Source: Candidatus Saccharimonadota bacterium (lineage in GTDB: Archaea; Nanohalarchaeota; Nanosalinia; Nanosalinales; Nanosalinaceae). From it: 32,000 nt of DNA. The number at the start of each line of letters is the position of its first letter. The first letter of the stretch is position 1. The stretch spans positions 660,001 to 692,000 of the forward strand of contig NZ_CP180230.1 of NCBI RefSeq assembly GCF_047555085.1. The letters run 5' to 3'. The notes under the pieces were generated by a model, which was given only the letters and a program-made list of their open reading frames with translations, did not search any database and was not told the DNA's origin. This document shows positions 3,620-31,976 of the stretch, piece after piece. The position numbers and the translations under genes were made by a program.

Positions 3620-3706
3620 AAGAAGTCTTTGAGGCCTGGAGACTTAACTAGGTAAGGAAAAAGAAGAGGGAAGAGAAAAAATTGTGGGAGGTCTGAAGAA
3701 AATTTT

Positions 3707-4246: not shown

Positions 4247-4527
4247 AAAGTAGACAGAGTTCTGAATTCTTTTAACCTCTCCGAAAACAATAAACAACAT
4301 GACACTGGAAAATCTTGCCTCAGGCCCGATCGGAGCATACATCGTCACAGGCCTCTTCTTCCTGGTACTAACGTTTTTCATACTGAATGAACTGGGCCTC
4401 GTCAGAAACAGTGAAGACGAAACTGAAGATCCTGAAGACTACGAAAGCTAGGAAAAAGTTTAAAAACAGAGAATGTAATACTTTGTATTACGATTGTGCG
4501 GTGCTCTTGTCACCAACATATCTTTCT

Positions 4528-5487: not shown

Positions 5488-5503
5488 AAGTAATGAATAC
5501 CTC

Positions 5504-5710: not shown

Positions 5711-5787
5711 TCATAAAGTGAGAAAAATTAGTGATATGCAAATAGAAAAAATTCTGTGGACTGGTCTCCCAGGCCTCTGTTGAAGCT

Positions 5788-5982
5788 TTAAGCTTCTGTG
5801 ACGTTGACTGCCTTTGGTCCTCGATCTCCTTCTTCCTGATCGAACTCGACTTCAGCTCCTTCTTCAACGCTAAATCCTTCGTCCTGGTCTTCCTTGTGGA
5901 AGAATACGTCATCATCCATCTCTTCAGTTTCTATGAATCCGTAATTCTTCTGATCGTGGAAGAACTTTACTGTACCTTTCAT
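5788..5982 (-). CDS. csp: Cold-shock domain protein (CspA family)
   Basis: MKGTVKFFHDQKNYGFIETEE...DVFFH contains RNP1/RNP2-like motifs (KGFGFI-like, VFFH). I place the start at the ATG at 5982-5980 rather than at the track's upstream start. Confidence 0.88.
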   Translation of the reverse strand: MKGTVKFFHDQKNYGFIETEEMDDDVFFHKEDQDEGFSVEEGAEVEFDQEEGDRGPKAVNVTEA

Positions 5983-6047
5983 AAAATAACACCTCCTTGT
6001 ATAGATAGAGATTAAATCCGAAGCGTTATAATGCAAGACATTAATTT

Positions 6048-8546
6048 CTAGCCAATTCGAATAGTTCCGTTCACAGGCCTGAAACGTGCTCCAGCCGTCA
6101 AAGTAATCCTTTCAGCATTCAAATCAAAGATTCCTCGCCAGAGGCCTGAAATTCTGGCGGAGCTATTTACAGATATGCTGGCAGAATTTTGAAAGGCCTC
6201 AAAGACTGCTGTGCTTTTCGACTCAAACTCCGAGTCTATGTCATAGGCCTCTCCGGATACAGAATGTGTTCTGTTAGATATGCATTTTTCTGACGAGATA
6301 TCGTCACATATGGCAGGTCTTAGACTTCCATCAAGCTGTGTGAAGTACGGTCTCTTGCCTTTCTGTGAGTAGTTGTAGAGATCCTGTATATCTTCCGCTT
6401 TCAGCTTCTTTCTGTAGATCCTGACATCATCTACTGATCCGTTGTAGTAAGTCTCAAGTTCGCTTCCGATTCCAAGCGTGAAGTAGCCGGTATCGTAGTT
6501 GTTGTAAAGAGTTCCAACAGAGTTTCTGTCTACCTGTTGTCCATCCACATAAAGTCTTACGTAATCATCGTCCTCTGCAGTTGCCATCACATGGTGCCAT
6601 TCTCCATCATCCAGAGCTTGATCAGATACAGCTATCTGGTCATTGCCATCGTATCCCCTGAAGACAACTCTTCCGTTGGAATCGATGTAGAACTCTTTTT
6701 CATGGCTTCCACCAAATGGAACATCATCGGAGAAACCGCTGATACTCTGACTTCTCTCAGTAGTCTTTATCCACATCCCTATAGTATAGGCCTCCGGGAG
6801 ATTTCCGACTGTTGCATTGAAGTAAGAACCGTTCCCATCGAAACTGTAGGCCTGATTAACTGCTCCATCAACTTCTGTAGTAACGTTCGTCAGACTTCCG
6901 TTTCTACCTCCTACAGGATCCCAGCCTGTATCGCCGTCAAGAGGCCAGTAAGAGATAAGATTCTTGCCTGTTGGAGGACAGCTGGATATCTTTTCAGGAT
7001 TTGTCTGGAATCCACAAGTCTGAATTTTATTCGCGAACTCGAAACTTTCCTCGGAGTCATAGTAAATCCTTGAGGCCTGTCCGTAGAAATTTTCAGTCTT
7101 CCCGTTTCTATCTATATCGCTCTCCTTTACAGGAAGCACCAGAGTATTTCTCAAATTCTGAGAACTATCTGTGAAGTTTTGCAGCTTTCTGACGTTACTG
7201 TAATCTGTGAAATCGTTTCCTGTCGTGAAACTGTAACTCTGTGTTGACGAGATAAGAGATTCGTTAGAGGACACTGCTTCGGCACTCCAGTTATAGACTG
7301 TATTCGGCTGAAAATTTTCTTCCAGTAACGTGGATGCTCTTCCCTCATCTCCTACCGAAACATTCTCCACAAGACTTCCGGAATTTTTGAAGGCGAGATA
7401 CCCTGAACTATTCGATATATCGTTGTACTTTGCTGACAGATTCAAGGCCTCCAAGGATTCATTGTACCACACAGTGGAGGAATCAGGCGGAGAAGGACTC
7501 GTTGAGTAAGCACCTCCCTGTTTCCTGCCAAAATCTGCGGAAGGCCTCTCTCCCCGAGTTGCATCATAGTAGGCCTGTATCTCGGATTCCGTGAGCGGAG
7601 TATCATATATTCTAACGTCCTCTACTGTACCTGTAAGATATCCTCCAGAAGCATCCTGAGAATGTCCAACAATAGCATACAGCTGGCTCCACTCTCCAGA
7701 CGCACCATTAAAATCAGAAACAGTGTTAGCACCATCCTGAGCAGAGTACTCCGTTCCATCAGCGTACAGATAAGTTGAATCTCCCTCTACAGGCCTGAAA
7801 GTCACGTGATGCCATTCTCCATCAGCAAAATTCCCTGATATACAAGGAACAGCATTATTTGATCCATCATCCCATAGACGGGCACAGAGATCTCCACCAG
7901 AAAGGTAGATATGCCTGTCGTGGCCGTCGGGATTCCCGGGATTAGATGTTCCCTGTACACTGAAGATTCCGCCATCAGAATCTGTAGTCTTGAACCACAG
8001 AGATATAGTGAAATCAGTCCTCAGACGCTTCTCCGAAAAATCCAGCGCCCCGTCATAGGCCGGTATGGAAACGTAATCACCGCCGTTAAAATCAAAGGCC
8101 TCCCCAAATTTTCCAGACACTGACGAAACACCGTTTAAAGAACCGTTCTCACCGTTTATCGCATCCCAGGCCTGTGAGTTATCAAAAGGATAGTATGAAA
8201 CAAGGCCTGTATCCAAATTTTCACAATTTTTCTTCATTTCCGGAGAAGTCTGGAATCCACATCGCTGCCCGGAATTATCTACAAATGCGAAATCTGTATC
8301 ATTGTTGAAGTATATTTCACCGGGCTGGCCGTAGAAAGTCTCATTTACCCCGTTTTCATCGATATCGCTTTCCTGCAACGGGATGATCAGCGAGCTTGTC
8401 GTGTTGTTGACGATATCTCTCCTGAAGTCGTATGTATCAAACCATGCAGCACCCGAGGAACTGAATAATGCAAGAAGTACTGCAAGGCCCAGAAAAATCC
8501 CGAGCCTCGAGCTTTTATCTGCAGAAAATTTCCCCGGAGACTTCAT
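6048..8546 (-). CDS. Secreted/surface protein with two LamG (concanavalin-A-like lectin) modules
   Basis: The 832-aa ORF has an N-terminal hydrophobic signal/anchor (RLGIFLGLAVLLALFSSSGAAW). It contains two homologous ~380-aa modules. Each has a (P)L/V(Q/K)ESDID(E/R)NG...F-YGQ-(5)-Y...CGFQT(S/N)PE segment, followed by a LamG_3-like segment (LVSYYPFD.../LISYWPLDG..., ...SLWFKT/GMWIKT, GEWHHV, DVRIYD/DVRIYR). Confidence 0.85.
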   Translation of the reverse strand: MKSPGKFSADKSSRLGIFLGLAVLLALFSSSGAAWFDTYDFRRDIVNNTTSSLIIPLQESDIDENGVNETFYGQPGEIYFNNDTDFAFVDNSGQRCGFQTSPEMKKNCENLDTGLVSYYPFDNSQAWDAINGENGSLNGVSSVSGKFGEAFDFNGGDYVSIPAYDGALDFSEKRLRTDFTISLWFKTTDSDGGIFSVQGTSNPGNPDGHDRHIYLSGGDLCARLWDDGSNNAVPCISGNFADGEWHHVTFRPVEGDSTYLYADGTEYSAQDGANTVSDFNGASGEWSQLYAIVGHSQDASGGYLTGTVEDVRIYDTPLTESEIQAYYDATRGERPSADFGRKQGGAYSTSPSPPDSSTVWYNESLEALNLSAKYNDISNSSGYLAFKNSGSLVENVSVGDEGRASTLLEENFQPNTVYNWSAEAVSSNESLISSTQSYSFTTGNDFTDYSNVRKLQNFTDSSQNLRNTLVLPVKESDIDRNGKTENFYGQASRIYYDSEESFEFANKIQTCGFQTNPEKISSCPPTGKNLISYWPLDGDTGWDPVGGRNGSLTNVTTEVDGAVNQAYSFDGNGSYFNATVGNLPEAYTIGMWIKTTERSQSISGFSDDVPFGGSHEKEFYIDSNGRVVFRGYDGNDQIAVSDQALDDGEWHHVMATAEDDDYVRLYVDGQQVDRNSVGTLYNNYDTGYFTLGIGSELETYYNGSVDDVRIYRKKLKAEDIQDLYNYSQKGKRPYFTQLDGSLRPAICDDISSEKCISNRTHSVSGEAYDIDSEFESKSTAVFEAFQNSASISVNSSARISGLWRGIFDLNAERITLTAGARFRPVNGTIRIG

Positions 8547-8565
8547 GAAAAGTATTTGGAGGCCT

Positions 8566-8575
8566 ATAAATAAAA
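8566..8575 (-). promoter_or_regulatory. Candidate TATA box for the LamG gene (leaderless-type spacing)
   Basis: The minus strand reads TTTATTTATA, then AGGCCT. The ATG at 8546 lies about 24-25 nt from the box centre. Confidence 0.4.
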
Positions 8576-8722
8576 TGTATAGACTGTTCTAGATAACTTC
8601 TCTCAGGACTCTGAGAAAGTTTCCGTGAGTGATTTTCGCTATCTCTTCTTCCTTGTATCCTCAAAAAAGGAGAAATAAACCTCGACATAGATATTTAACA
8701 GGCCTACGGACAGATGACAGAG

Positions 8723-8730
8723 TATAAAAA
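8723..8730 (+). promoter_or_regulatory. Candidate TATA box for the TauE-like gene
   Basis: TATAAAAA starts 27 nt upstream of the ATG at 8750. This spacing fits a leaderless archaeal transcript. Confidence 0.4.
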
Positions 8731-8749
8731 TTCTCCAGGCCTCAAATAG

Positions 8750-9502
8750 ATGTTGTACATGGAACCACTTCAGATAGGGATTTTACTGGGCGTCCTCGCT
8801 TTCTTCGCTCATATAGTCAAAGGCCTGACGGGATTCGGGCCTGCGATCGTATTCGTATCGATCGGTTCCATGATCTACGATCCTACAAAAGTGATCGTTC
8901 TGGCCTCTTTACTGGATATAATCGGAGGAAGCTACCTCTCAATACTGAACCCTGAATTCTTCGAAAACAAAAAATACTGGGCGCCGATAGGCCTTTTAAT
9001 GGTTACAGGAGCAGTAATCGGAGGAGTAGCACTTTCAGTAATCCCTCCAGGCCTGTTCGAATACCTTCTCGGCGGAGCAATTATCCTGATCTCTTTCTGG
9101 TTCCTCCTCGGAAAATTCAAGCCGGAAGAAGGCTCAGAAGGCACAGAGAAACTCCAGGTACTTGACGGAGCAGTCGGAGCATTCGCCGGATTCTGCGGAG
9201 GCTTCACAGGAATGGGAGGCCCACCACTCGTAGTCTATCTTGGCTCAAAATTCCGGAAAGAACTCTTCCGAGCAGTAGTAGTCCCTATCTTCCTGCTCGC
9301 AGCAATCGCCAGATTCTCTACCTACGGCTACCTCGGAATGATAGACACCTCAAACATCTACCTCTACATACTACCTCCAACAGGAGTAATCCTCGGAAAC
9401 TACCTCGGAAACCAGCTATTCCAAGAAGTCGAACAGAAAAAATTCACAATCCTCATAGGCCTCATACTCATGATCTCAGGCCTCAGACTAATACTCGGAT
9501 AA
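8750..9502 (+). CDS. TauE/SafE (DUF81) family anion exporter, integral membrane protein
   Basis: The 250-aa protein is very hydrophobic with multiple helices. It shows the two-half repeat architecture and G-rich helices (GLTGFGPAIVFV, GFCGGFTGMGGPPLVVYLG) typical of this family. Confidence 0.8.
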   Translation: MLYMEPLQIGILLGVLAFFAHIVKGLTGFGPAIVFVSIGSMIYDPTKVIVLASLLDIIGGSYLSILNPEFFENKKYWAPIGLLMVTGAVIGGVALSVIPPGLFEYLLGGAIILISFWFLLGKFKPEEGSEGTEKLQVLDGAVGAFAGFCGGFTGMGGPPLVVYLGSKFRKELFRAVVVPIFLLAAIARFSTYGYLGMIDTSNIYLYILPPTGVILGNYLGNQLFQEVEQKKFTILIGLILMISGLRLILG

Positions 9503-9540
9503 ACACCAAAAACTCAACGTATAGAGTATAAAGTTGAGAA

Positions 9541-9636: not shown

Positions 9637-10155
9637 CTATTCGAAAATATCTTCGGTTGTTTGGGCTTCTTTGAAGTCGCCAAGAGTCGTGTACATCAGT
9701 CCTTGCGGATACTTATTACGGTATTCTATTGGGTCTTCTAACCTGTATAAGCTATTTTCTTCAAACACTATCACTTTCTTATCCTCATCATATTGAGCAT
9801 CTTCTGTGTATGACTCTGCTGGCCTTGCTAAGTCAGCTTCATCCACAGGCACAATTTCTTTTACTTTAGCAAAATATTGAACTTCTTTAGCATCTCCCGT
9901 GACATACATCCCCACATAGTTAGGATTCTGACCTACTCTGACGAACCCCCAAGCATTGTTCTCTTTCAAGAAGTTAAGGCCTGATTGACGGGTTGGAAAT
10001 ATGGCAACCTGTTCTTCATTATCTCCTTGAATCTGTGACCTTTTTATTCGACCTACAACTGCATTCGTTTCTGATTCATCATCTTCTGTTTTCTCAGGTA
10101 CTTCTTGTTCTTCATCTAAAATATTATGGCCTTGTTCTTCAATAGACTCTGCAAA
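9637..10155 (-). CDS. Unknown-function domain ORF, probably the frame-shifted C-terminal continuation of the upstream nuclease-like gene
   Basis: The track ORF (9637-9969) starts at TTG. The same frame stays open upstream to 10155 with no ATG or GTG and codes plausible protein (FAESIEEQGHNILDEEQEVPEKTEDDESETNAVVGRIKRSQIQGDNEEQVAIFPTRQSGLNFLKENNAWGF...). It overlaps the end of ORF 10116-10802 by 40 nt in the -1 frame. Confidence 0.55.
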   Translation of the reverse strand, partial: FAESIEEQGHNILDEEQEVPEKTEDDESETNAVVGRIKRSQIQGDNEEQVAIFPTRQSGLNFLKENNAWGFVRVGQNPNYVGMYVTGDAKEVQYFAKVKEIVPVDEADLARPAESYTEDAQYDEDKKVIVFEENSLYRLEDPIEYRNKYPQGLMYTTLGDFKEAQTTEDIFE

Positions 10156-10802
10156 TCATCGATGAACTCTTTTGATTCCTGTTCAACTGTTTGAACAGCG
10201 ATATTTCCAATCTCATTCTTTATGAATCCGGAAATTTCGTTGGCTAAGTCTTCTTTGTTATCTCTAAGCGAATGAACGGAGTCTTCAATTTTGCTTATCC
10301 TTTCTGCAATTTCCTTAGAACTTCCTGATTCCACTGCTTCTTTACTCAGTGCTTCAAGTAATTTCAACTGAGTATCGAGATTGTCATGTGAGACTACCTT
10401 AAGAGACTTTACCTCAACCATTTCGCCATTTACTTCTCTCTTAAGAAACTGGAACTTTTTTCCGTTCGTCAAAATACCCCAGTTAACATTTTGAGTTATC
10501 ATGTACGAAGAGAGTTGTTCCTTATATTTTTCTTTAAGTCTCCTGCTTTCTGGTTTTGCCTCTACAAAAATATCAGGAGATTCACGAGCAATCAACGCAT
10601 AATCTACCTTATTTGTGCCTGAACCTGACTTGACAGAATATTCCAATTCAACATCCGTACTAAATGGCCAATCAAGAACATTCTCAATAAATGGTCTAAT
10701 CAACTTAGCTTTAGTGTTTGCTTCATCCATCTGCTGGTTATCCTCAAGTACCTCACAAGCAGCAGACTGAAACTCCCGGACTTTCCTAATATCCATAATC
10801 AA
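10116..10802 (-). CDS. HSDR_N-like PD-(D/E)xK nuclease-fold protein (type I restriction enzyme R N-terminal-domain family) with coiled-coil tail
   Basis: The N-terminus (EANTKAKLIRPFIENVLDWP ... NKVDYALI ... IFVEAKPES) matches the HSDR_N pattern, with D...(E/V)xK core residues. The C-terminal ~80 aa are helical and acidic. Confidence 0.65.
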   Translation of the reverse strand: MIMDIRKVREFQSAACEVLEDNQQMDEANTKAKLIRPFIENVLDWPFSTDVELEYSVKSGSGTNKVDYALIARESPDIFVEAKPESRRLKEKYKEQLSSYMITQNVNWGILTNGKKFQFLKREVNGEMVEVKSLKVVSHDNLDTQLKLLEALSKEAVESGSSKEIAERISKIEDSVHSLRDNKEDLANEISGFIKNEIGNIAVQTVEQESKEFIDDLQSLLKNKAIIF

Positions 10803-10868
10803 GAATTTACTAACAACTTTACTAAAACTGTTGCCAGTTTATGGAATTTTGAATCCAGTTTTGGATAA

Positions 10869-11849
10869 TTACAAAAGCTCATCTACTAGAATTTCTAATC
10901 TTTCCTTAACATTGATTACATCTGATTTAGCAATATTACCAGTTTTGTGATGAGCTATCCACCTTCTTTCAGCACTATTCATAGTTTTCAACTTACTCAT
11001 GGTTTTCTGTGAAATATCAGCAGTGTTATCCAACTCTTCAACCAATTCCTTAAAATAATAGTAGTCTCCTTCATCTTTTTCTTCTTCGATAATATCTATA
11101 TCATTCTCTTTGTTCAAATAACAGATAATAAGCCATTCTATTGAATGCACATACGAGCTTAAAGCAGAATGCAATAAATTCTCTCGATAACAGGCATTTC
11201 CTTCATCTACATGTGTGGTTACCTTCCCTCCGTACTCTAACTTTTCTAAAGCAGCTCTTTTATCAGAATCAAGAGAACTTTGAATTACTTCTTTTCTTGT
11301 CTGAGGCTCAAGTAAGGGTTCTGCCTCAAAATTAGACATTACCCTAGAAACTACCTGCTTAGTTGTATTGACCACATCTCCTACTCTTTTCCTAGGTATC
11401 TCACTTATTACGCCTTGTCTTCTCTTCTGAAGAATAGATGGCACAGCTGTAACATTTACTTCATAGCCCTCTCTGTCCTCACTCGGAATTGTTTTGAATT
11501 TAATCTCAATTGTAAAAGGCAAATCATTTCTAATAGATTTTAATCTTTCGAAGTACCTCTTATCCGTGAATTCTTTGTCAGAGATGATGTTCAAGAGGTT
11601 TTTTATCTTAAGACCGATGCCTAAATTGGCAGCACTTTGTTCCAAATCCAGTCTAAATTTAATTGACCGACTAGCATCAGCAAACTCTGGAAAATATGGA
11701 TTTATTTCCTCGTCTGGCAAGTATCCTTCTCTGGCCATTTGTTTCGAAATAAGAGTCTTCAACTCCTTGACAGTGTCATTTCCTATCTCTCTATACAAGA
11801 AATATTTCCCTTCTACTATGAGCTCTTCCGGTTCCAAGACATCAGACAT
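10869..11849 (-). CDS. Hypothetical protein with possible C-terminal HEPN-like helical domain
   Basis: This 326-aa ORF ends in ~120 aa that look like a helical bundle. That region holds an Rx4H motif (NSAERRWIAHH) in a position typical of HEPN. I do not recognise the N-terminal ~200 aa. Confidence 0.55.
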   Translation of the reverse strand: MSDVLEPEELIVEGKYFLYREIGNDTVKELKTLISKQMAREGYLPDEEINPYFPEFADASRSIKFRLDLEQSAANLGIGLKIKNLLNIISDKEFTDKRYFERLKSIRNDLPFTIEIKFKTIPSEDREGYEVNVTAVPSILQKRRQGVISEIPRKRVGDVVNTTKQVVSRVMSNFEAEPLLEPQTRKEVIQSSLDSDKRAALEKLEYGGKVTTHVDEGNACYRENLLHSALSSYVHSIEWLIICYLNKENDIDIIEEEKDEGDYYYFKELVEELDNTADISQKTMSKLKTMNSAERRWIAHHKTGNIAKSDVINVKERLEILVDELL

Positions 11850-11954
11850 AATTCTTAGTCTCTAGCAAAGGGTTAACTATCTGTTGGAGCTAAAATCATA
11901 AAATCCAATTTCGAGGTATAGAGGCTGAAAACCAAGAAAATCAACAGCTGATGG

Positions 11955-11974
11955 TAAAATTTTTTGGCAGGACC
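11955..11974 (+). repeat. Right copy of direct repeat TAAAATTTTTTGGCAGGACC
   Basis: See 9541-9557. This copy lies in the divergent intergenic region between genes 10869-11849 (-) and 12172-13245 (+). Confidence 0.4.
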
Positions 11975-12038
11975 CGTCTACTCCACCCGGTCCGGGGAAT
12001 CTTCCTGTAATATACAATAATATTGACTATATTTTTAT

Positions 12039-12056
12039 ACTATTTCCTGAAATAGT
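12039..12056. promoter_or_regulatory. Near-perfect 18-bp palindrome ACTATTTCCTGAAATAGT (candidate operator)
   Basis: 16 of 18 positions are self-complementary. TTGACT hexamers flank it on both sides (about 12023 and 12064). It lies ~115 nt upstream of the ATG at 12172. Confidence 0.35.
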
Positions 12057-12171
12057 TCGGGCGTTGACTCAATAAATAATCATCGAACTATAGAAGTAGC
12101 TAACTCCTATCGGTTGCAATGCTCAGAATAAACAACAACTTTTATTTTGGCCATTTACCCATTCTGACAAT

Positions 12172-13245
12172 ATGTCAAAACAGGGAGGGAGAACTCCTAG
12201 TCCACTCAAGAGCTCAGATAGCCGGTTAAATGAACGCATTAAGGGGAAAAATGAAGTTTTCAAAGTCCTTCTGGAAGAAACGTTTCAACCTACGGGATTT
12301 TTTGGTTCACCTACAGAGCACTCCGAGGACACTGATGAAGTAGAAAATGGTGTTGTCAAGGATGCCGCTAAGAGTTGGTTTGATCCAACAGCAGATACGG
12401 ATGAAGTAGTGGAGAAGGCTGTTTACTTTGATTTAGATGAATGGGAAGACGGTACAAGACTTGGCCGGCCCACGAGAGGGAGATATATCTCTCAAAAACT
12501 TTTGGCTGAGAAGACAGATAAGGATCAAAGTATCGTCTCAAAGGCGAAACATACTTTCAATTCAGATGAGTATTTCGGAGAGGAAGATCTTATAATATCC
12601 AAAAATCCGCCAGAGTATAGGAAAGAATATTTAGCCATTAATACTGATGCCTTTCTAAATTTTATGATTAATCTATTCGAGAAATCTTCCTTCAAAATGT
12701 CTAAAGATGAGAAAGAGGCGTTCAAGAAATTTCTCTCCTCTTTTTACAATCCTGAGAGCATATACGGTAAAATAGATGGTGAACTGCAGTTTCTGGCATT
12801 GAAACGTCTTATATTAGATTGCGAGAATCTTTATTCGGACTATCAGAAAAGAGAGGAAGATGAATACTTTCAGGAATTATATGATAAAGTAGCTGAGCGG
12901 CTATACGAAGAAATCTATGAGCAAGAGGATAAAGTCCAAGTTGATATCGATGGAGAAAAGACGATAGATGACGGTGAATTCGTAGAAGAAGTAATTCCTT
13001 TCGTGAAGAAATTTCTGGCCTTCAGTGAACTTGAACAAATCTTAAATCAAGAGGACTTTCGCCAAGCTGAAGACTCTCTTTTGAACTATATTAGTATGAG
13101 AAAGTGGGGAGATGCTGAGTTAGAAGTAAACGAAGAAAGGAGAGATCAAATAGCCGAAACTATCGTGAAAGAATTCGATGAACACGATGCTTACAATACT
13201 TCAACAGAAAGTTCATTGAAGTCATTTCTAAATTCATTGCTTTGA
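12172..13245 (+). CDS. Acidic hypothetical protein with a possible XRE-like helix-turn-helix
   Basis: This 357-aa ORF contains RYISQKLLAEKTDKDQSIVSKAKH, which resembles an HTH_XRE motif. I do not recognise the rest. Confidence 0.55.
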   Translation: MSKQGGRTPSPLKSSDSRLNERIKGKNEVFKVLLEETFQPTGFFGSPTEHSEDTDEVENGVVKDAAKSWFDPTADTDEVVEKAVYFDLDEWEDGTRLGRPTRGRYISQKLLAEKTDKDQSIVSKAKHTFNSDEYFGEEDLIISKNPPEYRKEYLAINTDAFLNFMINLFEKSSFKMSKDEKEAFKKFLSSFYNPESIYGKIDGELQFLALKRLILDCENLYSDYQKREEDEYFQELYDKVAERLYEEIYEQEDKVQVDIDGEKTIDDGEFVEEVIPFVKKFLAFSELEQILNQEDFRQAEDSLLNYISMRKWGDAELEVNEERRDQIAETIVKEFDEHDAYNTSTESSLKSFLNSLL

Positions 13246-15357: not shown

Positions 15358-17388
15358 TTAACTTTCCTCCCTTATACAGCTTAAAATCCATTTTATCGCT
15401 ATTTCGCCATCTTTCCTCACGAACTCGCTAGGATCTCGTTCGTGGTTCACGGCGTTCCTGAAATCGCTGAAGTCTCCGAACCTGTTCTCTACCTCTGCCT
15501 TTGATGGGAAGTCCTCGTTGAACAGATCGTAGTTAGTGTTAATGATCTTGACGTAGTCCATTATGTTACAGTAGTCGAGCCTGTCTCTACCTGTTTCTAT
15601 CTCCAAGTTTGGATTCTTCTTCCTATCATCTCTTACTCTCCCTTTCACTCGTCCTTTAACGTCTTGAGGAGTTTTATCCCAGTAGTCTTCACCGTAGCTT
15701 TCTCTCATCTTTCTGTGAAGGTAGTCTCTAACACGTGTTTCTGTTTCGCTGATTACTTCCTGTGGCTCGGTATCAAGGTCTGACTCAAGATCAGATATGC
15801 TACCTATCAGCCTGTTAATTTCGTTAAGGAATAGTTCTGCTCTTTTCTCCAAAAACTTGTTGTAGTCGTCCTCCCAGATACCTGAGTCTTCCCCATAAGG
15901 CATCATATGAGAAGACATTCTGTCTTCAAACTGTTCTTCAGATAGTCTTTCTTTCAGGCCCCCGAAGTATTCGCTCGGTTTAGTATCCCTGATCTTGTTC
16001 CTGTTGAGATCCTTCGGAATGAAGGTAATATCCATAATGCTCTTTCTCTTGGAGGAACTGAATCCTTCACCTTTCAGGAAGGAATTGGGGAATATATGAT
16101 GATGGTCTATCTTGAAGTCGGAGAAGTAGTTTCCGTCAAGTGTAAGTGTTCCTCCTCCTTCAAAGTGTTTAGGATTTGTTTTGGCAAGGATACAGAGGAA
16201 GACGTTACGTAGACCTGAAGAAGATTTCTTGATGTTGGTGCTGATCAATTTCTCCTTGTTTACCTGTGGAGGGAAATCGATTTCTACGTCTTCTCCAGCT
16301 ATTATTCTGTCGAATAGCTTTCTGTCATCCGTCATAGTAGTCTGGGTTGAGCTTGAGTAGCGTCCAGAAACTGCTGTCTGCCAGAACCAGCGGTCGATGT
16401 AAGTCTTGTGTCCAGCCTCTATGCTGTGATTCTCTGTTTCAAACATATAGTAGGATAGAACAGGTATCATTCCTTCGTAAGGTATGAATGACGCTTGTTT
16501 GACACCCAAGTTATTCTGTAGATAGTTAACTGCTCTAATTATAGCGTCTTTGGTGTCTTTCCAGTTTTCTTTCACTTTTTCAGTTTCAAGATTTCTTTGG
16601 GTGCTGGTTGAACAGTTGCCTTCTATATTAAGTGCTAATGCTTGTGTAACGGCGCCTCTGTCTATTTCACCGAAGCCCTTATCATCCAGTTTCTCCATCA
16701 GGTCTTCGTCTATTCTTTCACGTAAATCGAAGTCTTCATCCCAGACGTTAGCGTTTACAATATCAAATCTGCCAAGTCTCGTTCCTTTCTGGTTGATTCT
16801 TTCAAATATATCAATAACTTCATCCAAGTCTCCTGAATCTACACTTATAGTTGAGATAGGGTAGTCTTTGAGACGGTCTCTACATTCGAGTAGAGCTTCC
16901 TGTCTTTCTCCTTCAAGTTCGTTTATTATTTCTATTCTTTTCTTGTCGTTCCAGATTTCGGATACTTTGACGAGGTGACTGGCTTTTCCGTCTGCCACTT
17001 TGAACTCTTCCTTGTCGAGGTCGAACACAATTCTGCTGTAGTCTGTACCTCCAAAGTCCTTTCCTTTTAGTACGGCGTATAGAGATGTTAGTCTTTGTTG
17101 TCCGTCAAGTACGAAGTTGATTTCTGGTACGGCCATACTGTCTATGTCGGGCTGGTCTAAGTCTTCTATTCTTCTAAAGAATCCCCATTTGTCTTTTGGG
17201 GCTTTCCAGAGGAAGAAACTGCCGATAGGGAAGTGATGGTATACGCTGTCAAGAAGATCAACCACTTCTGTTCTATCCCATACGTATTCTCTTTGGAACT
17301 GTGGAATCCTGTAGATGCCTTTTTCCATATTTTGGACTATGTCAGAAAGATCTCCTCGTCCGGGCTTGAGATTGACCTTCTTACTCAT
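15358..17388 (-). CDS. GmrSD-family type IV (modification-dependent) restriction enzyme: DUF262 + DUF1524 with C-terminal Swt1-like HEPN domain
   Basis: DUF262 motifs are IPQFQREYVW and DGQQRLTSL. The DUF1524 His-Me motif is KIDHHHIFPNSF. The C-terminal region has FRNAVNHERD (RNxxxH, Rx4H) in a helical segment. Confidence 0.85.
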   Translation of the reverse strand: MSKKVNLKPGRGDLSDIVQNMEKGIYRIPQFQREYVWDRTEVVDLLDSVYHHFPIGSFFLWKAPKDKWGFFRRIEDLDQPDIDSMAVPEINFVLDGQQRLTSLYAVLKGKDFGGTDYSRIVFDLDKEEFKVADGKASHLVKVSEIWNDKKRIEIINELEGERQEALLECRDRLKDYPISTISVDSGDLDEVIDIFERINQKGTRLGRFDIVNANVWDEDFDLRERIDEDLMEKLDDKGFGEIDRGAVTQALALNIEGNCSTSTQRNLETEKVKENWKDTKDAIIRAVNYLQNNLGVKQASFIPYEGMIPVLSYYMFETENHSIEAGHKTYIDRWFWQTAVSGRYSSSTQTTMTDDRKLFDRIIAGEDVEIDFPPQVNKEKLISTNIKKSSSGLRNVFLCILAKTNPKHFEGGGTLTLDGNYFSDFKIDHHHIFPNSFLKGEGFSSSKRKSIMDITFIPKDLNRNKIRDTKPSEYFGGLKERLSEEQFEDRMSSHMMPYGEDSGIWEDDYNKFLEKRAELFLNEINRLIGSISDLESDLDTEPQEVISETETRVRDYLHRKMRESYGEDYWDKTPQDVKGRVKGRVRDDRKKNPNLEIETGRDRLDYCNIMDYVKIINTNYDLFNEDFPSKAEVENRFGDFSDFRNAVNHERDPSEFVRKDGEIAIKWILSCIREES

Positions 17389-17548: not shown

Positions 17549-17614
17549 ATGACTCCATATGATGTCATAAATCACCCGGTTATGACGTCATATGAATTCA
17601 TAAATAAAGGCCTA
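17549..17614 (+). repeat. Two tandem ~33-bp units in the GmrSD upstream intergenic region
   Basis: Unit 1 is ATGACTCCATATGATGTCATAAATCACCCGGTT (17549-17581). Unit 2 is ATGACGTCATATGAATTCATAAATAAAGGCCTA (17582-17614). Unit 2 begins with the 12-bp perfect palindrome TATGACGTCATA. CATATG occurs three times within ~80 bp. Confidence 0.6.
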
Positions 17615-17737: not shown

Positions 17738-18211
17738 TCACTGCGCATTATTTTTGTCGAACTCAGCCTTTACTTGGCCGTAGTAGCTTACGAATGCTAT
17801 TAAGTTAAGAATAGATGCAGATAGATATAGCAGTAAGAATGTGAAGAATCTATAGAGCCATATACTGCCATTAGCTACTGTAGCGAGCCCGACTAGGGTT
17901 GTAAAAATTGCGATATAGGCGTTCCATTCAAAAAGGAATATTAACTGGTCAAAAACCTGTGCTTTATCTTTTAAAAAAGATATAAAGCTTGAATTAGATA
18001 GTGAAACAATTATAGCTAGTCCTGTTAATACTATTGCAATAAGTGAAGAAGTAAAACCAATGCTAGCCTCCAAGAAGCCTAAAGAAGAAGGTATTACGGA
18101 GAAGAAATATAGAGTAGCAAATATTACAGCAGAAACTTTGAAATCGTTAGATGTGAGTAATCTAAGTCCGCCATACTTTTTCAGCCGCGACACAAAAGAC
18201 CTATCCTTCAT
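17738..18211 (-). CDS. Small integral membrane protein, ~4 transmembrane helices
   Basis: The hydrophobic segments are VSAVIFATLYFFSVIPSSLGF, SSLIAIVLTGLAIIVSL, AYIAIFTTLVGLATVA and FFTFLLLYLSASILNLIAFVSYY. I prefer the ATG at 18211 (MKDRSF...), which lies inside the last 11 nt of the upstream ORF (ATGAAGGATAG). The track start at 18232 is a GTG. Confidence 0.7.
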   Translation of the reverse strand: MKDRSFVSRLKKYGGLRLLTSNDFKVSAVIFATLYFFSVIPSSLGFLEASIGFTSSLIAIVLTGLAIIVSLSNSSFISFLKDKAQVFDQLIFLFEWNAYIAIFTTLVGLATVANGSIWLYRFFTFLLLYLSASILNLIAFVSYYGQVKAEFDKNNAQ

Positions 18212-19046
18212 TATTTTCCTCCATTCTTGCACTGATAAAATCCTTCAAGCTGGAAACCTTGTGCTTAAAATCTTCTAAAACTGCAGGCCTCACAATCTCC
18301 TTCCTGATAGGTTTATCGCCGGAAGTTAACGTCTTCCTCTCCCCATCCATAATATAGTCGATAGAGAACTCTCCATATCCTTCTGAAACTAATGCAATGG
18401 CACTGCCCAAAAGACTTCCATCAGTAAACTTTAACGATTCTTCTTCATTCTCAGCTTCCAGCTTCGCACTCTCAGCGTTCATCCCACGAAGCGCATTATC
18501 TATTTTCTTCGACTCTTCCGTAAAATCAGGATTTGTGGGTTCTAATTGCTTGAATCTTGCCTCAGGGATACTAGAGGCCTCAGATAATATTTCTTTGAAC
18601 TCTCCCTTCTGTTCAATAAAGTTAATCTCGAGAAGATCATCAGAATTATAGAAGTTATTGAAGCCTTCTACAAATACGGTTCTGAACTGCTTATGTCCTA
18701 TGTATTTTTTCCGTTCGTACATAATCAGTTTCTCTGAAGGTATTATTGCGAAGTACGAGAAATTGGTGTCCTCGCTATCTTCATACACGAAATCCTTTTC
18801 CTCCTCATCCCAAGTTGGCTCTTCATATTCCCCCGTTAAAATTCTCCCTAACTTCCCATAAATTACTCCATCTTCTACTTCAACTCCACCTATTTTCCAG
18901 TCGCCATCCTCTGTATCAGTATGTATTTCTGGCTCCTCGCAAAAGGTTTTAAGCTGGTCTAATATAGAGTTATCGCTCGTGAAAGAATCTAGCGGTTTAT
19001 GGAAATGAAACCTCCCAAAATAGATGTTTACAGTTTTATCTGTCAA
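18201..19046 (-). CDS. Acidic cytoplasmic hypothetical protein (no recognisable family)
   Basis: This 281-aa ORF is uninterrupted. The only available start is TTG at 19046, preceded by purine-rich GAGAGGGGA. No in-frame ATG occurs until about codon 107. I saw no TM segment, P-loop or nuclease motif. Confidence 0.65.
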   Translation of the reverse strand: MTDKTVNIYFGRFHFHKPLDSFTSDNSILDQLKTFCEEPEIHTDTEDGDWKIGGVEVEDGVIYGKLGRILTGEYEEPTWDEEEKDFVYEDSEDTNFSYFAIIPSEKLIMYERKKYIGHKQFRTVFVEGFNNFYNSDDLLEINFIEQKGEFKEILSEASSIPEARFKQLEPTNPDFTEESKKIDNALRGMNAESAKLEAENEEESLKFTDGSLLGSAIALVSEGYGEFSIDYIMDGERKTLTSGDKPIRKEIVRPAVLEDFKHKVSSLKDFISARMEENNEG

Positions 19047-19120
19047 ATAAAGTCCCCTCTCAGAAAATATTTGTAATTCCTGCCATTTTAAACTAGCCCT
19101 ATGTCCTACACAATAAAACT

Positions 19121-25000: not shown

Positions 25001-26014
25001 ATGACTGCTTCCAGAAATCAAATTATCTCGGATGCAAGAGTGTTGACAGCTGATTATTTGCCGAATAAACTTGTACATAGAGATGGGGAGAGGCAGGAGA
25101 TTGCAAGGAATTTGAGGCCTCTGATGGATGATGATATTCCTACGGATATGCTTCTTCACGGGCCTCCGGGCACAGGAAAGACAGCAATGGCGAAATACGT
25201 AGTAGAGGAATTACAGAAAGAGGTATTCGTCAATACCAGTTATGTCAACTGCTTCAGCCACAAATCAAGATTTGAGATCTTCTACGAATTACTAGATGAG
25301 AAACTGAAAGTTCCCAGAGACAGCACCTCCACAGAGAAAGTAATTGAAAAATTTGAAGAAAAGGTAAGGAAGAGGCCTACAATCATAATTATTGACGAAG
25401 TTGATCAGATAACGGAAGATGAAGTATTATACGAACTAAGTCGTTTCCAGAAGGCAGGCATCATCTTCATCGCCAATGATGCCAACACCTTCTCACATTT
25501 TGAGGATAGAGTAAGGTCCCGTATCAGTGGAGTAAATAGGATCCGGTTCAAGAGATACAGCAAACAACAGCTCACTGATATACTGAAGCTTCGAAGGAAG
25601 CACGGCCTGAGAGAAGACTCAGTAAAAACATCACAACTGAAGAAGATAGCTTCCAAAGCTGGTGGCGATGCAAGAGTCGCCGTAAACACGTTGCGCTTGG
25701 CGGCAAGAAAAGCTGAAAGCAAAGGCCTAGAAACAATAACAGATGAAATCATCAAAGATGCTGTTAATGATGCTTACGACGAGGAAGAGCTGGAGTCGCT
25801 GGAGCGCTTGAACAGCCATCAAAAGAAGGCCTACAAGCTCCTACAGGAAAACGGCCCTATGCAGATCGGAGAACTTTACGACAAATACGAAGACGACGTT
25901 AATGACAGTAAATCACGGAGACAACTACTCCGATACCTGAAGAAGATGGTGAGTTACAACATCCTTGAGACAGAAGGATCAAAAAGCTCCACAACATACA
26001 GTATAGCAGAATAG
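25001..26014 (+). CDS. orc1: Orc1/Cdc6 AAA+ replication initiator
   Basis: The 337-aa ORF has Walker A (HGPPGTGKTAMAKY), Walker B (IIIIDEVDQ), sensor-2-like GDARVAVNTLRLA and a C-terminal winged helix. Confidence 0.9.
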   Translation: MTASRNQIISDARVLTADYLPNKLVHRDGERQEIARNLRPLMDDDIPTDMLLHGPPGTGKTAMAKYVVEELQKEVFVNTSYVNCFSHKSRFEIFYELLDEKLKVPRDSTSTEKVIEKFEEKVRKRPTIIIIDEVDQITEDEVLYELSRFQKAGIIFIANDANTFSHFEDRVRSRISGVNRIRFKRYSKQQLTDILKLRRKHGLREDSVKTSQLKKIASKAGGDARVAVNTLRLAARKAESKGLETITDEIIKDAVNDAYDEEELESLERLNSHQKKAYKLLQENGPMQIGELYDKYEDDVNDSKSRRQLLRYLKKMVSYNILETEGSKSSTTYSIAE

Positions 26015-26964: not shown

Positions 26965-27240
26965 ATGGGGCGTACGAATTCTACTTACAGGAATCATCTG
27001 GATAACTTTATAGATGGATTCAAGCCTTTCAGACAGGCCTTGAGAAAGGAAAACAAGCAGCATCTGGATTCTTTATGGGAGAAAGCGCATCAGTTTGCTC
27101 AAGCAGGCGCCTACTTGAACTCTAGTCAGCCAAGTCTTCCGGCCTTTATCTCGATGATGCTTGGTGTGCAGAAGGAGGCCTCTGAGAACAGAAAGCAGAT
27201 CGAAGAACTGAAGGAGAGAGTGGAGGAGTTGGAGAGTTAA
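26965..27240 (+). CDS. Small helical/coiled-coil protein
   Basis: The 91-aa ORF has a C-terminal heptad-like NRKQIEELKERVEELES. Its stop overlaps the polB ATG (TAATG at 27238-27242). Confidence 0.55.
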   Translation: MGRTNSTYRNHLDNFIDGFKPFRQALRKENKQHLDSLWEKAHQFAQAGAYLNSSQPSLPAFISMMLGVQKEASENRKQIEELKERVEELES

Positions 27241-29336
27241 TGGTTTTCAAGATCGATTTCATAGATGGCGAGACTGTATCTTGGACGAAGACTAAATCAG
27301 GTGTCGAAGCAACACGCCACAGAGAGTACCGGCCCCGGTTCTACTTGGAAGGAAGTAAGTCAAAGCTTCAGAAAGCACGTCCGTGGCTGTCACAGAAAGA
27401 CGGAGTGGTAGCTACCTCTTTCGAGCACTGGAAGCCTACACTATCGAAGCCAGAAAAAGAAGTACTCCGCATAGATGTGGAAGATAATGAAAAATTGAAA
27501 TCAACGGCATATAGATTAAAGAGGAACTTCGGTCGCTCCACATTCAAATTCTACAACGTAGGATTTTCACCGCAGTTCCGCTTCTGCCTTCAAAAAGAGA
27601 TTTGTCCGGTACCTGAAAACGATTTGAACAGAGTTGAACTCAGTCTACATCGGAGACATATCGCAGATCAAGATATATCGCAACTGAAACTGAACGGAGA
27701 ACAAGTTCAAGGAAGCGAAAAAGAGGTGCTTAGTACGCTTCAAAGTTACTGGGAGCGCAGGAATCCTGATATAATCTTAGTGAATCGTAGTCAAGTGCTG
27801 GAGCTTCTCAAGGATAAAATGTCTGAGTACAAGGTCTCTTTTCCGCTTGGACGGATCGACAAGTTTCAGCAACTTGCAGGAGAGAACACAGTCAGCAGCT
27901 ACGGCAGAACAGTACACAGTTCCGCAAGATACAATGTCCCCGGGAGAATAGTAATCGATAAATCAAACAGCTTCCTGCTAGGAGAAGCAACGATTGAAGG
28001 CCTCTGGGATCTTGTCAAGAGAAGCTACAGGCCTATGCAGGAACTAGCGTGGGGGAGCATCGGACGACTATTAACTAGTATCGAAGTCCGGAGAGCCTAT
28101 CTTGAAGAAGATACTTTGACGCCTTGGAAGAACTGGAGTGGTGAAAAACCGAAGAAGGCTTCTACACTGCACAAGGCTGATAGAGGAGGATTCATTTTCA
28201 ATCCAGAGCCCCGGATACATCGAGATGTTTACGAGGCAGACTTCGCAAGCTTGTTCCCCAACATAATGGTGGAGAAGAATATCAGTCCTGAAACGGTATG
28301 CTGCGACTGCTGTGACAATAATAGAACTCCAGAACTAGATTACAGTATCTGCGAGAAACAAAAGGGTTTCATATCGAAAGTATTGAGGCCTTTAGTAGAA
28401 GATCGTCAAGAGATGAAGGAAAAAGTAGATGACATAGAAGATGAAGAGGAACACCGATACATTCAGGGGAGTATAGATGCCATCAAATGGATACTCGTCT
28501 CTTGCTTCGGCTATATGGGTCACAGCCACGCCTCTTACGGTGCTATCAAATGCCATCAGGCTATTCAGGCCTTTGACAGAGACATAATGGTGAGAACAAA
28601 AGAAATGTTCGAAGAATCCGGATACGGCGTCTCTCACGGCATAATCGATAGTATCTGGGTGCAGGAAGAAGAAAACTCCCGAGATTTCGAGGACGTATGC
28701 GAACAGATTTCAGAGGAAATCGGTATCAAGCTGGAGCCAGAGTACAAGTTTGAATGGTGCGCTTTCGTGCCTCGTAGTGGTTCAGAGGCCGATATCGCCA
28801 CACTCAACAGATACTTCGGGAAGAAAGAGAACGGCGAGTTCAAGACAGCAGGCATAGAAACAGAACAGAGATCTACCTGTGAGTTCATCAAAGATGCACA
28901 GATGGAGATGATAAAGGCCTTAGATCAAACAATGTCGGCAGAAAGCGTAATACGTGTAGTCAAAAATCATATCGATATACTTGGAAGCAAGGAAGTAAAT
29001 CCCGAGGCCTTAGTAAAAGAAAAGAGAGTCTCCAAGCCACTAGAGGCCTATAAAGTAGAGAATCGCTCGGTATCAGCATTGAAAAGAGCGGAGCATCACG
29101 GTATTGAAATGAAGCCGGGCCAGTCTATCAACTTCATAGTGAAAGATGATGACGCAGATCCTATCGACAGAACACGACTGGACTTTGAAGCACAACAAGG
29201 AGATTACGATGCATTATTCTATACTACAGAACTGATACGAGCAGCGGAATCAATTCTATCGCCGCTTGGATTAGACAGAGAAGACATAAAGAGAAGGATA
29301 CACGGCGGAAATTCTAAACTGAGAACTTATATTTGA
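27240..29336 (+). CDS. polB: Divergent family-B DNA polymerase (PolB2-like) with degenerate exonuclease and partly degenerate polymerase motifs
   Basis: The archaeal PolB N-terminus is present (FKIDFIDGE...YRPRFYLEG). Motif A (DFASLFPNIM) is intact. Motif B reads KWILVSCFGYMG and motif C reads HGIIDSIWV, which keeps one Asp of DTD. The expected Exo I (FDIET) position reads VELSLH, and Exo II (NxxxFD) reads VNRSQVLELL. The KKRY/RGxxxRRD region reads GKKEN...AGIETEQRS. At 698 aa it is short for a replicative PolB. Confidence 0.8.
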   Translation: MVFKIDFIDGETVSWTKTKSGVEATRHREYRPRFYLEGSKSKLQKARPWLSQKDGVVATSFEHWKPTLSKPEKEVLRIDVEDNEKLKSTAYRLKRNFGRSTFKFYNVGFSPQFRFCLQKEICPVPENDLNRVELSLHRRHIADQDISQLKLNGEQVQGSEKEVLSTLQSYWERRNPDIILVNRSQVLELLKDKMSEYKVSFPLGRIDKFQQLAGENTVSSYGRTVHSSARYNVPGRIVIDKSNSFLLGEATIEGLWDLVKRSYRPMQELAWGSIGRLLTSIEVRRAYLEEDTLTPWKNWSGEKPKKASTLHKADRGGFIFNPEPRIHRDVYEADFASLFPNIMVEKNISPETVCCDCCDNNRTPELDYSICEKQKGFISKVLRPLVEDRQEMKEKVDDIEDEEEHRYIQGSIDAIKWILVSCFGYMGHSHASYGAIKCHQAIQAFDRDIMVRTKEMFEESGYGVSHGIIDSIWVQEEENSRDFEDVCEQISEEIGIKLEPEYKFEWCAFVPRSGSEADIATLNRYFGKKENGEFKTAGIETEQRSTCEFIKDAQMEMIKALDQTMSAESVIRVVKNHIDILGSKEVNPEALVKEKRVSKPLEAYKVENRSVSALKRAEHHGIEMKPGQSINFIVKDDDADPIDRTRLDFEAQQGDYDALFYTTELIRAAESILSPLGLDREDIKRRIHGGNSKLRTYI

Positions 29337-30554: not shown

Positions 30555-31976
30555 TCATATACTTCCCTTTAACTCCTCGATCACGCCTTTTTCTTCTATA
30601 TAATCACTTATTGCTTCCTCCAGCTTCTGTTTCTCTTCATATGCATCTCCTCCAGATTCGGATCTGTTGTGGCACTTTAACTCTTCGTCAGCTTCCTCTC
30701 CACAGTCTGGACAGTATTTCTGTAGGTCCGAAACCAGTTTTCCGCAACTACATTCCCACGGCTTCAAGCTGTTGTCATTGAACTTTCTCTCACTTTCAGT
30801 CAACTCTTCTCCGTAGTCTTCTCTTACACCTGCAAGAACACTCTCCTGCATTAATTCGATGTAGTGCTTAGGAGCATCTGAAGTCTTACTCCACCCAAAA
30901 AATGCTCGAAGAAAGTTCTCGTTTTTATCCTGTGCCGCCCAGTATAGGGCTCGAGCATCTCTCCAGAACCAGTGTGGCTTCTTCGTAAGTTGGTCAGGAA
31001 CTATATCTTCTCGTTTGGCCTGTTTCAAAATTCTCTGTAATACCTGTCTCATATCGTTTCCTGTCATAGGCTTCCTTCTTTTATCCGCCTCGGCCGCTTT
31101 ACCTTTCCAAGAGCAACCATCTCCCTGACAATGATACGTTCTCCGGTGGTATGCAGTATTCCTGTCAGCGTCTAAATCTTTGGTACCGCATTTCGGACAT
31201 CGATTCTCCTGATTATTCTGCTGGAAAACAGGTTCTGAAAGATCTGGATTTTCCCTATTTTGCAGCTGCTTCATAACGGGCATTGAGGCCCGTACAGGGA
31301 TTTCTCTTTCACCGCTTTTACCTCGAAGTGTTACATACATCTCGCTGCCATCGAATCTGATGTCCTTCCACTTAATCGGCTCTGGATGCTGGTGGTGGTC
31401 GGCTGTTTTACCCATTTCTCCTATCCTTGCTCCTGTTGCCCATCCGAAAAGTATCAGACAACGGTCACGAATGTTATTTGCCTGCTCTGCCACCAACTTG
31501 ACGTGTTCTGGAGTAGGCCGAGTATGGATGTCAATAGTAGTAGAAAGATCTACATTTACATCGAGGTCATCGACTAGTTCAGGGCCATCAAGCTCTTTGT
31601 TAAATCCTTTGCCCTGCTTCTTGATGAATTTGTTGTAGAAAACTCTTACAGCTTTCCAGAAATCATTCTTACTGTGGTCACTGTAACACTCTCCGTTCAT
31701 CTTCCTTAATCCATCAGTGTTCAATGCGTTGACGATCCCCTCAATATCTTTCTTTTCAGCTTGATCGAGAGGAAAGTCAATCAGTTCGGCGAGTCTGTTG
31801 AACCGGCTTGCATAATCTTTCAATGCAGTTTGTCCGGTCCCTTTGCTCCCCATCTTGCGGAAGAACTCGTTAAGGACTTGTTTGTTGTGATTGCTGATTT
31901 TAGAATTTTCAGAAAGTTTACGGTGGTTCTGTTCTACAGAGTCGAATGTCATATTGTCCGGTTCTTGGGTCGCCAT
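30555..31976 (-). CDS. int: Tyrosine recombinase/integrase with one internal and one C-terminal zinc-ribbon motif
   Basis: The 473-aa ORF has Arg-I in WATGARIGE, a beta-hairpin Lys region (LRGKSGEREIPV), PHWFWRDARALYW (H..R region) and FGWSKTSDAPKHY (W/H + catalytic Tyr). The Cys clusters are CPKCG...CQGDGC (inserted within the catalytic domain) and CSCG...CPDCG (C-terminal, after the catalytic Tyr). Confidence 0.8.
   Translation of the reverse strand: MATQEPDNMTFDSVEQNHRKLSENSKISNHNKQVLNEFFRKMGSKGTGQTALKDYASRFNRLAELIDFPLDQAEKKDIEGIVNALNTDGLRKMNGECYSDHSKNDFWKAVRVFYNKFIKKQGKGFNKELDGPELVDDLDVNVDLSTTIDIHTRPTPEHVKLVAEQANNIRDRCLILFGWATGARIGEMGKTADHHQHPEPIKWKDIRFDGSEMYVTLRGKSGEREIPVRASMPVMKQLQNRENPDLSEPVFQQNNQENRCPKCGTKDLDADRNTAYHRRTYHCQGDGCSWKGKAAEADKRRKPMTGNDMRQVLQRILKQAKREDIVPDQLTKKPHWFWRDARALYWAAQDKNENFLRAFFGWSKTSDAPKHYIELMQESVLAGVREDYGEELTESERKFNDNSLKPWECSCGKLVSDLQKYCPDCGEEADEELKCHNRSESGGDAYEEKQKLEEAISDYIEEKGVIEELKGSI

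Follow-up and report, generated by a model that had tools for sequence, protein, structure and literature searches.

What function do two small, overlapping genes serve that lie between a type I restriction–modification (R–M) operon and a GmrSD-like gene in the genome of a nanohaloarchaeon? The genes, here called A and B, occupy positions 17,738 to 19,046 of a 32,000-nucleotide (nt) stretch of contig NZ_CP180230.1, and this whole stretch is referred to below as the window. An earlier note, made from the DNA letters alone, had described them as an unrecognisable cassette and a candidate for an undescribed anti-virus module. Taking profile searches, structure prediction and the comparison of related loci together, we consider it probable that A and B are the two components of a RexAB-type module which excludes viruses by abortive infection and which is cargo of a mobile element integrated in the nanohaloarchaeal genome. 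We assign the pair to a known class of architecture because a DUF4747- or RexA-like protein followed by a protein with four transmembrane (TM) helices is the published layout of Rex systems. Historically, Rex was the first example of abortive infection to be observed, and its trigger is still unknown.

Anatomy of the cassette and predicted structure of its products

Gene A (18201..19046, minus strand) is an open reading frame (ORF) with a TTG start that encodes an acidic protein of 281 amino acids (aa; D+E 22%, K+R 12%), a putative DNA-binding sensor of DUF4747 or RexA–RdgC-fold type. Gene B (17738..18211, minus strand) starts with an ATG at 18211 and encodes a 157-aa protein with four TM helices, a putative RexB-like membrane effector. 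Direct reading of the sequence places the ATG of B within the final codons of A, in an 11-nt overlap of the two genes (ATGAAGGATAG, 18201..18211, minus strand). The sequence that precedes the start of B is TGCAAGAATGGAGGAAAATA, followed directly by the ATG, and a GGAGG motif resembling a Shine–Dalgarno sequence (18218..18222, minus strand) lies inside gene A, 6 nt upstream of that ATG, where it could serve in initiation of B. The stop–start overlap suggests that B is translationally coupled to A. The sequence of protein A is that of ACK3SF_03995 (100% identity), which is encoded on a 1,046,238-bp contig of the nanohaloarchaeon Ca. Nanosalina sp. VS9-1. A 164-aa version of B with a GTG start was considered and rejected, as the NCBI annotation gives 157 aa (ACK3SF_03990) and B of a related locus (L003) starts at the corresponding ATG. 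The TTG start of A is credible because a conserved YFGR motif near the N-terminus has its first residue at position 9 and because the two close homologues of A (78–79% identity) likewise begin at TTG; such a start was seen only in the Nanosalina-like clade, with ATG in most other loci. The two genes are not chance ORFs, given that HMMER, run exhaustively on 1.84 billion cluster representatives, returned 206 relatives of A at an expectation value (E) below 1e-3, nearly all of 270–310 aa, and that almost every locus examined has a homologue of B after that of A. The earlier note had read this anatomy correctly: the pair is co-oriented with hsdR and begins 74 nt after it, the ATG of B falls within the last 11 nt of A, the upstream ORF has a TTG start, the partner carries four hydrophobic helices, and the flanking genes bear the Pfam domains of a type I R–M system and of GmrSD, the latter gene lying 349 nt away where the note had put about 350.

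The sole Pfam match of A is to DUF4747 (PF15931; E 1.4e-5; 25.1 bits against a curated cut-off of 27; profile positions 117–254 of 257), and the precomputed Pfam column of the protein database gives PF15931 for A and its close homologues. To represent the family we used an alignment of 136 full-length relatives, the window protein included, which also served for AlphaFold2 and hhalign; 48 of these 136 members match DUF4747 at E<0.01, the best at 9e-14. The members are mostly metagenomic, and their taxonomic spread was taken from the content of their contigs. DUF4747 is the family to which lambda RexA, Sbash gp30, CarolAnn gp44 and Butters gp30 gave weak HHpred matches in work from the Hatfull and Ware laboratories, and each of these four proteins is paired with a four-pass membrane protein, namely RexB, gp31, gp43 and gp31, respectively (PMC6426596, PMC6426606, PMC7542560). 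A 'DUF4747/CarolAnn prophage system' is also among the immune operons listed in a 2026 EMBO J paper (PMC13373217). Scans with Pfam and NCBIfam found no recognisable nuclease or other toxic domain in A, and scans of A and B with NCBIfam and PHROGs returned nothing meaningful. The statement of the earlier note that A holds no assignable motif needs correction on one point, the sub-threshold match to DUF4747. Searches of PDB-chain sequences with profiles of 3 and of 136 A sequences gave noise alone (E>0.4), as did a search of 50,697 phage records by tblastn with A as query, and a scan of IMG/VR viral contigs found no relative.

The fold of A was predicted by AlphaFold2 with a predicted local distance difference test (pLDDT) score of 89.9 and a predicted template-modelling (pTM) score of 0.81. 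When the model was compared by Foldseek with 350,542 PDB chains, the top match was lambda RexA (8TWQ_B; E 1.4e-4; probability 1.00), aligned over nearly its full length (317 columns), followed by E. coli RdgC (2OWL; E 1.2e-3); no other PDB chain in this set scored below E 0.01. RdgC is itself the structural homologue reported for RexA by Adams et al. (PMC11077077). The model comprises a beta-rich N-terminal region to about residue 135, an inserted alpha/beta region at about 139–252 and a long C-terminal helix at 257–280, and this order of elements mirrors the published layout of RexA, in which the globular domain is split in two by the dimerisation domain and completed by helix alpha8. As modelled, A appears to be a cytoplasmic component with the two-domain fold of RexA and RdgC. 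Among predicted viral structures, Foldseek also matched the model to five uncharacterised phage proteins of 277–322 aa (E 4e-8 to 3e-12). With RexA as the top PDB match of the predicted fold and DUF4747 near its threshold, the cassette can no longer be called unrecognisable.

Hydropathy analysis of B gave four hydrophobic segments, at about residues 24–40, 55–71, 97–113 and 125–141, and the AlphaFold2 model is an all-helical bundle (pLDDT 83). RexB, gp31 and gp43 have the same four-segment topology by the same method, and B is in the size class of RexB (144 aa), Sbash gp31 (165 aa) and CarolAnn gp43 (178 aa). The Foldseek matches of B among viral structures include Sbash gp31 (TM-scores 0.59/0.56; probability 0.94) and, from Siphoviridae ctylc9, a protein of 172 aa; this phage is also the source of one of the best A-like matches, and that ctylc9 supplies both supports the existence of A-like and B-like pairs in bacterial phages too. 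A gene for a small four-TM-helix protein, immediately downstream of the gene for the cytoplasmic protein, is what characterises a Rex pair, and it is what follows A in the window.

Conservation of the pair and its mobile-element setting

We examined 13 distinct related loci (L002, L003, L005, L006, L007, L010–L013, L014, L015, L016 and L019). A locus search with a narrow alignment yielded two loci in genomes and one in a metagenome. A B-type gene stands directly after A in 11 of the 13, with overlap or abutment of 0–14 nt in ten loci of this type, so the membrane gene that the earlier note had expected beside homologues of A is indeed conserved. The pair is intact on eight metagenome contigs (L003, L005, L006, L007, L010, L011, L012 and L013; L008 is the same element as L007), in Natrialba aegyptia DSM 13077 (L015) and on a contig from a non-halophilic metagenome (L016); in the temperate Clostridium phage HM T (L019) it corresponds to HMT_3/HMT_4 at 2174–3842. 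Window B matched eight related B proteins by phmmer with E from 1e-14 to 2e-72 within that small set, and the B-family profile scored 127 bits with the protein of L015 and 49 bits with that of L016. All B homologues have four hydrophobic segments apart from that of L006, in which three passed the threshold, and they have in common a motif in the loop between TM2 and TM3, VSxSxxxFIxFLKxxxVYDxIxFxFE.

In the Clostridium phage, which is a cultured one, HMT_3 is an unannotated DUF4747-like protein that scores 56.9 bits with the archaeal A profile and 25.7 bits with DUF4747, and HMT_4, encoded 16 nt after it, is a 238-aa protein with four TM helices that scores 10 bits with the B-family profile, which is not significant. 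The two genes adjoin a Zn peptidase gene, with a recombinase gene beyond. HMT_3/HMT_4 is a candidate for a Rex-like system whose bacterial host is tractable.

Across the related loci, the robust association of the pair is with mobile elements and proviruses, as it is for bacterial Rex; for known defence genes we make no claim of statistical enrichment. Integrases are found no more than 4 kb from the pair or from the A homologue in L002, L010, L011, L014 and L015; the one in L002 directly follows a split B gene and is homologous to the integrase of the window (E 5e-26). Locus L006 (ENA KOPF15-1 scaffold_5453, 1–9485) is pleolipovirus-like, with a spike protein that aligns with that of Halorubrum pleomorphic virus 9 (HRPV-9) at 59% identity across 93% of its length, and carries the A and B pair as cargo at 5210–6608. 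A 139-aa gene just upstream of the pair in this element is listed as PDDEXK_16; a Pfam scan of it at E<=0.001 gave nothing. None of the isolated haloviruses in the phage collection searched carries the pair. In L007, the pair is preceded by a C5 methylase and EcoRII-C and followed by a PD-(D/E)xK protein and HicAB.

In the window, the pair sits between hsdMSR, whose products match the Pfam domains of type I R–M systems, and the gene with the GmrSD_N domain. To the right of hsdM follow a gene for a Cdc6/Orc1 AAA+ protein (25001–26014), a gene for a family-B DNA polymerase (PolB; 27240–29336) and one for a tyrosine integrase that carries a zinc ribbon at its C-terminus (30555–31976, minus strand), with three unassigned ORFs amid them. 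The genes at 1–9.5 kb are housekeeping genes, and at 10–13 kb the G+C content falls from about 0.45 to 0.36–0.38. This drop, together with the Cdc6/Orc1, PolB and integrase genes, suggests a defence island on a self-replicating integrated element, and the defence genes of the window probably ride on such an element. No convincing pair of direct repeats that would mark its borders as att sites, and no tRNA gene, was found in the window.

The spacer of 74 nt (19047..19120, minus strand) between the hsdR stop (19121) and the start of A (19046) contains an A/T-rich TTTAAAA (19086–19092, minus strand), a candidate archaeal TATA box, and a GAGGGG (19054–19059, minus strand), a candidate ribosome-binding site; instead of having its own promoter there, the cassette may be co-transcribed with hsdR. 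Beyond the other end of the cassette, the 349 nt between the stop of B (17738) and the start of the GmrSD-like gene (17388) hold an inverted repeat (17549..17601, no strand) with 22-nt arms, 86% complementary, around a 9-nt spacer. It lies 137 nt beyond the stop codon of B, with 161 nt left before the GmrSD-like gene starts, and contains two TATGAYGTCATA palindromes, a sequence absent from the rest of the window (4 strand-matches observed versus 0.21 expected by chance). The repeat could be a transcript-end hairpin or an operator.

The GmrSD-like neighbour itself (15358–17388, minus strand; 676 aa) has a GmrSD_N/DUF262 domain (E 9e-34); its C-terminus gives weak HEPN matches alone (Swt1-like, E 1e-3), alongside matches to the PADLOC candidate models PDC-M55C, HEC-05 and PDC-M34B, and shows no canonical GmrSD C-terminal nuclease domain. 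Judged by these domains, it may be a DUF262–HEPN fusion and not a classical type IV enzyme. The stretch of lowest G+C, 10116–13245, encodes a 228-aa protein (10116–10802) in which an HSDR_N_2 nuclease-like domain was the only match, and 326-aa and 357-aa ORFs without a Pfam match; these ORFs may be further defence or mobile-element cargo. Farther left, an 832-aa protein (6048–8546, minus strand) has two Laminin_G_3 (concanavalin-like lectin) domains and is probably a surface protein. In nanohaloarchaea, such proteins attract interest in connection with attachment to the host.

The Rex-type reading and its rivals

If A and B work as a Rex-type system, A would be a cytoplasmic protein of RexA–RdgC fold, probably a dimer and possibly DNA-binding, that senses a cue of infection, which could be viral DNA, an intermediate of replication or recombination, or a viral protein. 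Dimers with non-specific DNA binding are characteristic of RexA-like proteins, and that of P. putida RexA is clamp-like. Activated A would then act on B, presumably by direct interaction, and B would oligomerise in the membrane into a channel or pore; the loss of membrane potential and ATP would stop growth and abort the infection, and in this the antiviral effect would lie. Two features would hold the ratio of the proteins, namely the weakness of the TTG start in A and the coupled translation of B. In lambda Rex, the RexA:RexB ratio is critical (PMC12894663). Over-expression of RexA leads to membrane damage that depends on RexB, and in E. coli, Mycobacterium, Gordonia and P. putida, pairs of the RexAB type cause such RexB-dependent damage and exclude phages (PMC12894663). 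A 2026 count gives five characterised Rex-like systems, all from bacterial prophages, and in four of the five the membrane protein is the effector (PMC12894663). The pairing of a cytoplasmic sensor with a small membrane effector, as a candidate abortive-infection module in a defence island, had been the core of the earlier note and is the reading best supported here. Nor did A fall into a non-defence family, an outcome that the note had said would undo its proposal; the family that A matches is associated with defence.

Several observations weigh against a Rex-type module. The DUF4747 score of A lies below the curated cut-off of Pfam, and the global TM-score between the A model and RexA is just 0.36 (root-mean-square deviation 13.7 Å, Foldseek), a low value that we attribute to a two-domain protein whose inter-domain angle, in the model, differs from that of RexA. 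The structural matches of B are weak (E 0.05–0.55), and four-helix membrane bundles are a common shape. Comparison of the A family by hhalign with lambda RexA, with the 25-member RexA family, with CarolAnn gp44 and with a CarolAnn/Sbash/Sejanus alignment gave a probability below 1% in each case (0.4% for the RexA family profile, 0.15% for gp44 and 0.5% for the alignment), and the B profiles did not match RexB (0.4%) or gp43/gp31/gp45 (0.1%). In L002, the closest relative (JGI Ga0466667_0027385, 1169–1648; A 79% identical), a frameshift splits B into fragments of 74 aa and 33 aa, which represents either a pseudogene or an assembly error. In L014 (Haloferax sp. DFSO60, 8004–9529), an A homologue stands without B; its 3′ end shares 4 nt with a convergent gene, whose 223-aa product has one TM helix, at the N-terminus, and the distance to an integrase is 1.4 kb. 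The 223-aa protein could be an alternative partner, or L014 could be a decayed system. Finally, known defence genes adjoin the pair in only two of the 13 related loci (L007 and, marginally, L016) in addition to the window, so the enrichment next to defence genes that the earlier note had anticipated is not shown, the neighbourhoods of homologues being mostly those of integrases and proviruses.

An hmmsearch with the archaeal-family profiles scored the actinophage Rex-like proteins at about 0 bits, and neither A nor B matched Pfam RexA (PF15969) or RexB (PF15968) at E<=1, which leaves both outside these families by sequence. In the Pfam scan, lambda RexA matches PF15969 only, and CarolAnn gp44, Sbash gp30 and Sejanus gp46 match nothing. 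A PADLOC scan, its RexA and RexB models included, returned nothing for A or B; this silence is uninformative because the same models recognise the lambda proteins but also miss the validated CarolAnn gp44/gp43 pair. We claim no sequence homology to the characterised Rex proteins: as judged from the models, the link is one of fold and architecture.

The alternative that survives best, although we regard it as unlikely, is that the pair serves the mobile element and not defence, with A as a DNA-binding modulator of RdgC–RexA fold that acts on recombination, on replication or on the switch between the integrated and active states, and with B tethering or regulating it. The recombination-associated RdgC as second-best structural match of A would suit such a role, as would the Cdc6/Orc1 and PolB genes of the window island and the fact that the pair is found most consistently beside an integrase or provirus and not beside a defence gene. 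Lambda RexA, moreover, acts on the lysis–lysogeny switch without RexB (PMC11077077). This context does not discriminate, however, because prophage-borne defence genes adjoin integrases as a rule, and in the window and in L007 the pair lies directly between R–M, GmrSD-like and toxin–antitoxin genes. The strict coupling to a small four-TM protein, in addition, is a mark of an exclusion function, whereas RdgC acts alone.

Still less probable is an inversion of roles, in which A would be the antiviral or toxic effector and B would sequester or temper it until infection. Mycobacteriophage Butters, the fifth Rex-like system, offers the precedent, since its gp30 alone defends and gp31 binds gp30 (PMC7542560, PMC12894663), and the A genes that persist without B in L014 and with a frameshifted B in L002 suggest that A can be retained alone. 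The conservation of B, kept with A in 11 of the 13 loci together with its loop motifs, indicates that it is more than an accessory, A has no toxic domain that we could recognise, and the Butters arrangement is the exception among the five characterised systems. We give as little credence to the view, implied by the earlier note, that the pair is an unrelated novel sensor and membrane-effector system with a convergent or chance resemblance to Rex: the missing profile similarity to any characterised Rex protein, the TM-score to RexA and the lack of a PADLOC match speak for it, but only RexA and its structural relative RdgC were retrieved below E 0.01 from the PDB, over nearly full length, the bordering Pfam family is the one that HHpred reports for RexA, gp30 and gp44, and size, gene order, overlap, four-TM partner and probable mobile-element location all coincide with those of Rex systems.

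A wider proposition about the RexAB-type module is one that we hold more tentatively, at somewhat less than an even chance: that these genes belong to a functional archaeal branch of Rex-type systems, spread by integrative elements of haloarchaea and nanohaloarchaea and by pleolipovirus-like proviruses, and operating in a genome-reduced DPANN episymbiont. If that is so, viruses and mobile elements would share the oldest known abortive-infection mechanism, in which a sensor of RexA fold opens a four-TM membrane channel, across archaea and bacteria alike, and an archaeal homologue that is tractable would aid the search for the Rex trigger. If the archaeal pairs are functional, Rex-type immunity would extend to archaea and to DPANN symbionts, their very divergent sequences would help to find what is truly conserved in the A–B interface, and current defence annotation would under-count this class. 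In the literature that we found, coverage of which is incomplete, no Rex-like system is described in archaea. The first DefenseFinder survey placed RexAB in Proteobacteria only, its models being narrow Pfam RexA and RexB hidden Markov models, and found bacterial Rex systems to be mostly prophage-borne (PMC9090908).

Comparison with known systems

Lambda RexA/RexB (PF15969/PF15968; 8TWQ) resembles the window pair in the order and size of its genes, the cytoplasmic protein coming first (279 versus 281 aa) and the four-TM protein second (144 versus 157 aa), in its carriage on an integrated element, which is probable for the window pair, and in the proposed logic by which a sensor would act on a membrane channel. 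The two differ in that no sequence or profile similarity is detectable between them, that lambda rexA and rexB lie 15 nt apart and do not overlap, that the lambda host is an enterobacterium and the present one a DPANN archaeon, and that the window protein is strongly acidic. E. coli RdgC, for its part, shares with A the structural match alone: it is a lone recombination-associated nucleoid protein without a membrane partner gene and has no sequence similarity to A.

The actinophage systems Sbash gp30/gp31, CarolAnn gp44/gp43 and Butters gp30/gp31 also resemble the window pair in architecture. They pair a cytoplasmic protein, for which a weak DUF4747 match is reported, with a four-TM protein encoded by the next, overlapping gene, with overlaps of 26 nt for CarolAnn gp44/43 and 41 nt for Sbash gp30/31 compared with 11 nt in the window, they are expressed from integrated elements, and Sbash gp31 is among the best structural matches of window B. 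Their A proteins are about 90 aa longer (356–372 aa), have no significant profile match to the archaeal family and fail to reach DUF4747 at all in the Pfam scan.

The closest relationship at the sequence level is that to proteins of DUF4747, a domain of unknown function, for example HMT_3 of Clostridium phage HM T; like A, HMT_3 has a four-TM neighbour, and it is encoded by a temperate phage, with a recombinase gene near. HMT_3/HMT_4 departs from the window pair in the longer membrane protein (238 aa) and in the gap of 16 nt that separates its genes. A DUF4747- or RexA-like protein with a four-TM partner has been published for lambda, Sbash, CarolAnn, Butters and P. putida (PMC6426596, PMC6426606, PMC7542560, PMC12894663, PMC13373217), so the module is not undescribed, as the earlier note had supposed. 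The kind of system is already known; what is new is its setting in an archaeal clade that includes cultured haloarchaea as well as a DPANN nanohaloarchaeon and a pleolipovirus-like element and that goes undetected by PADLOC-DB v2.

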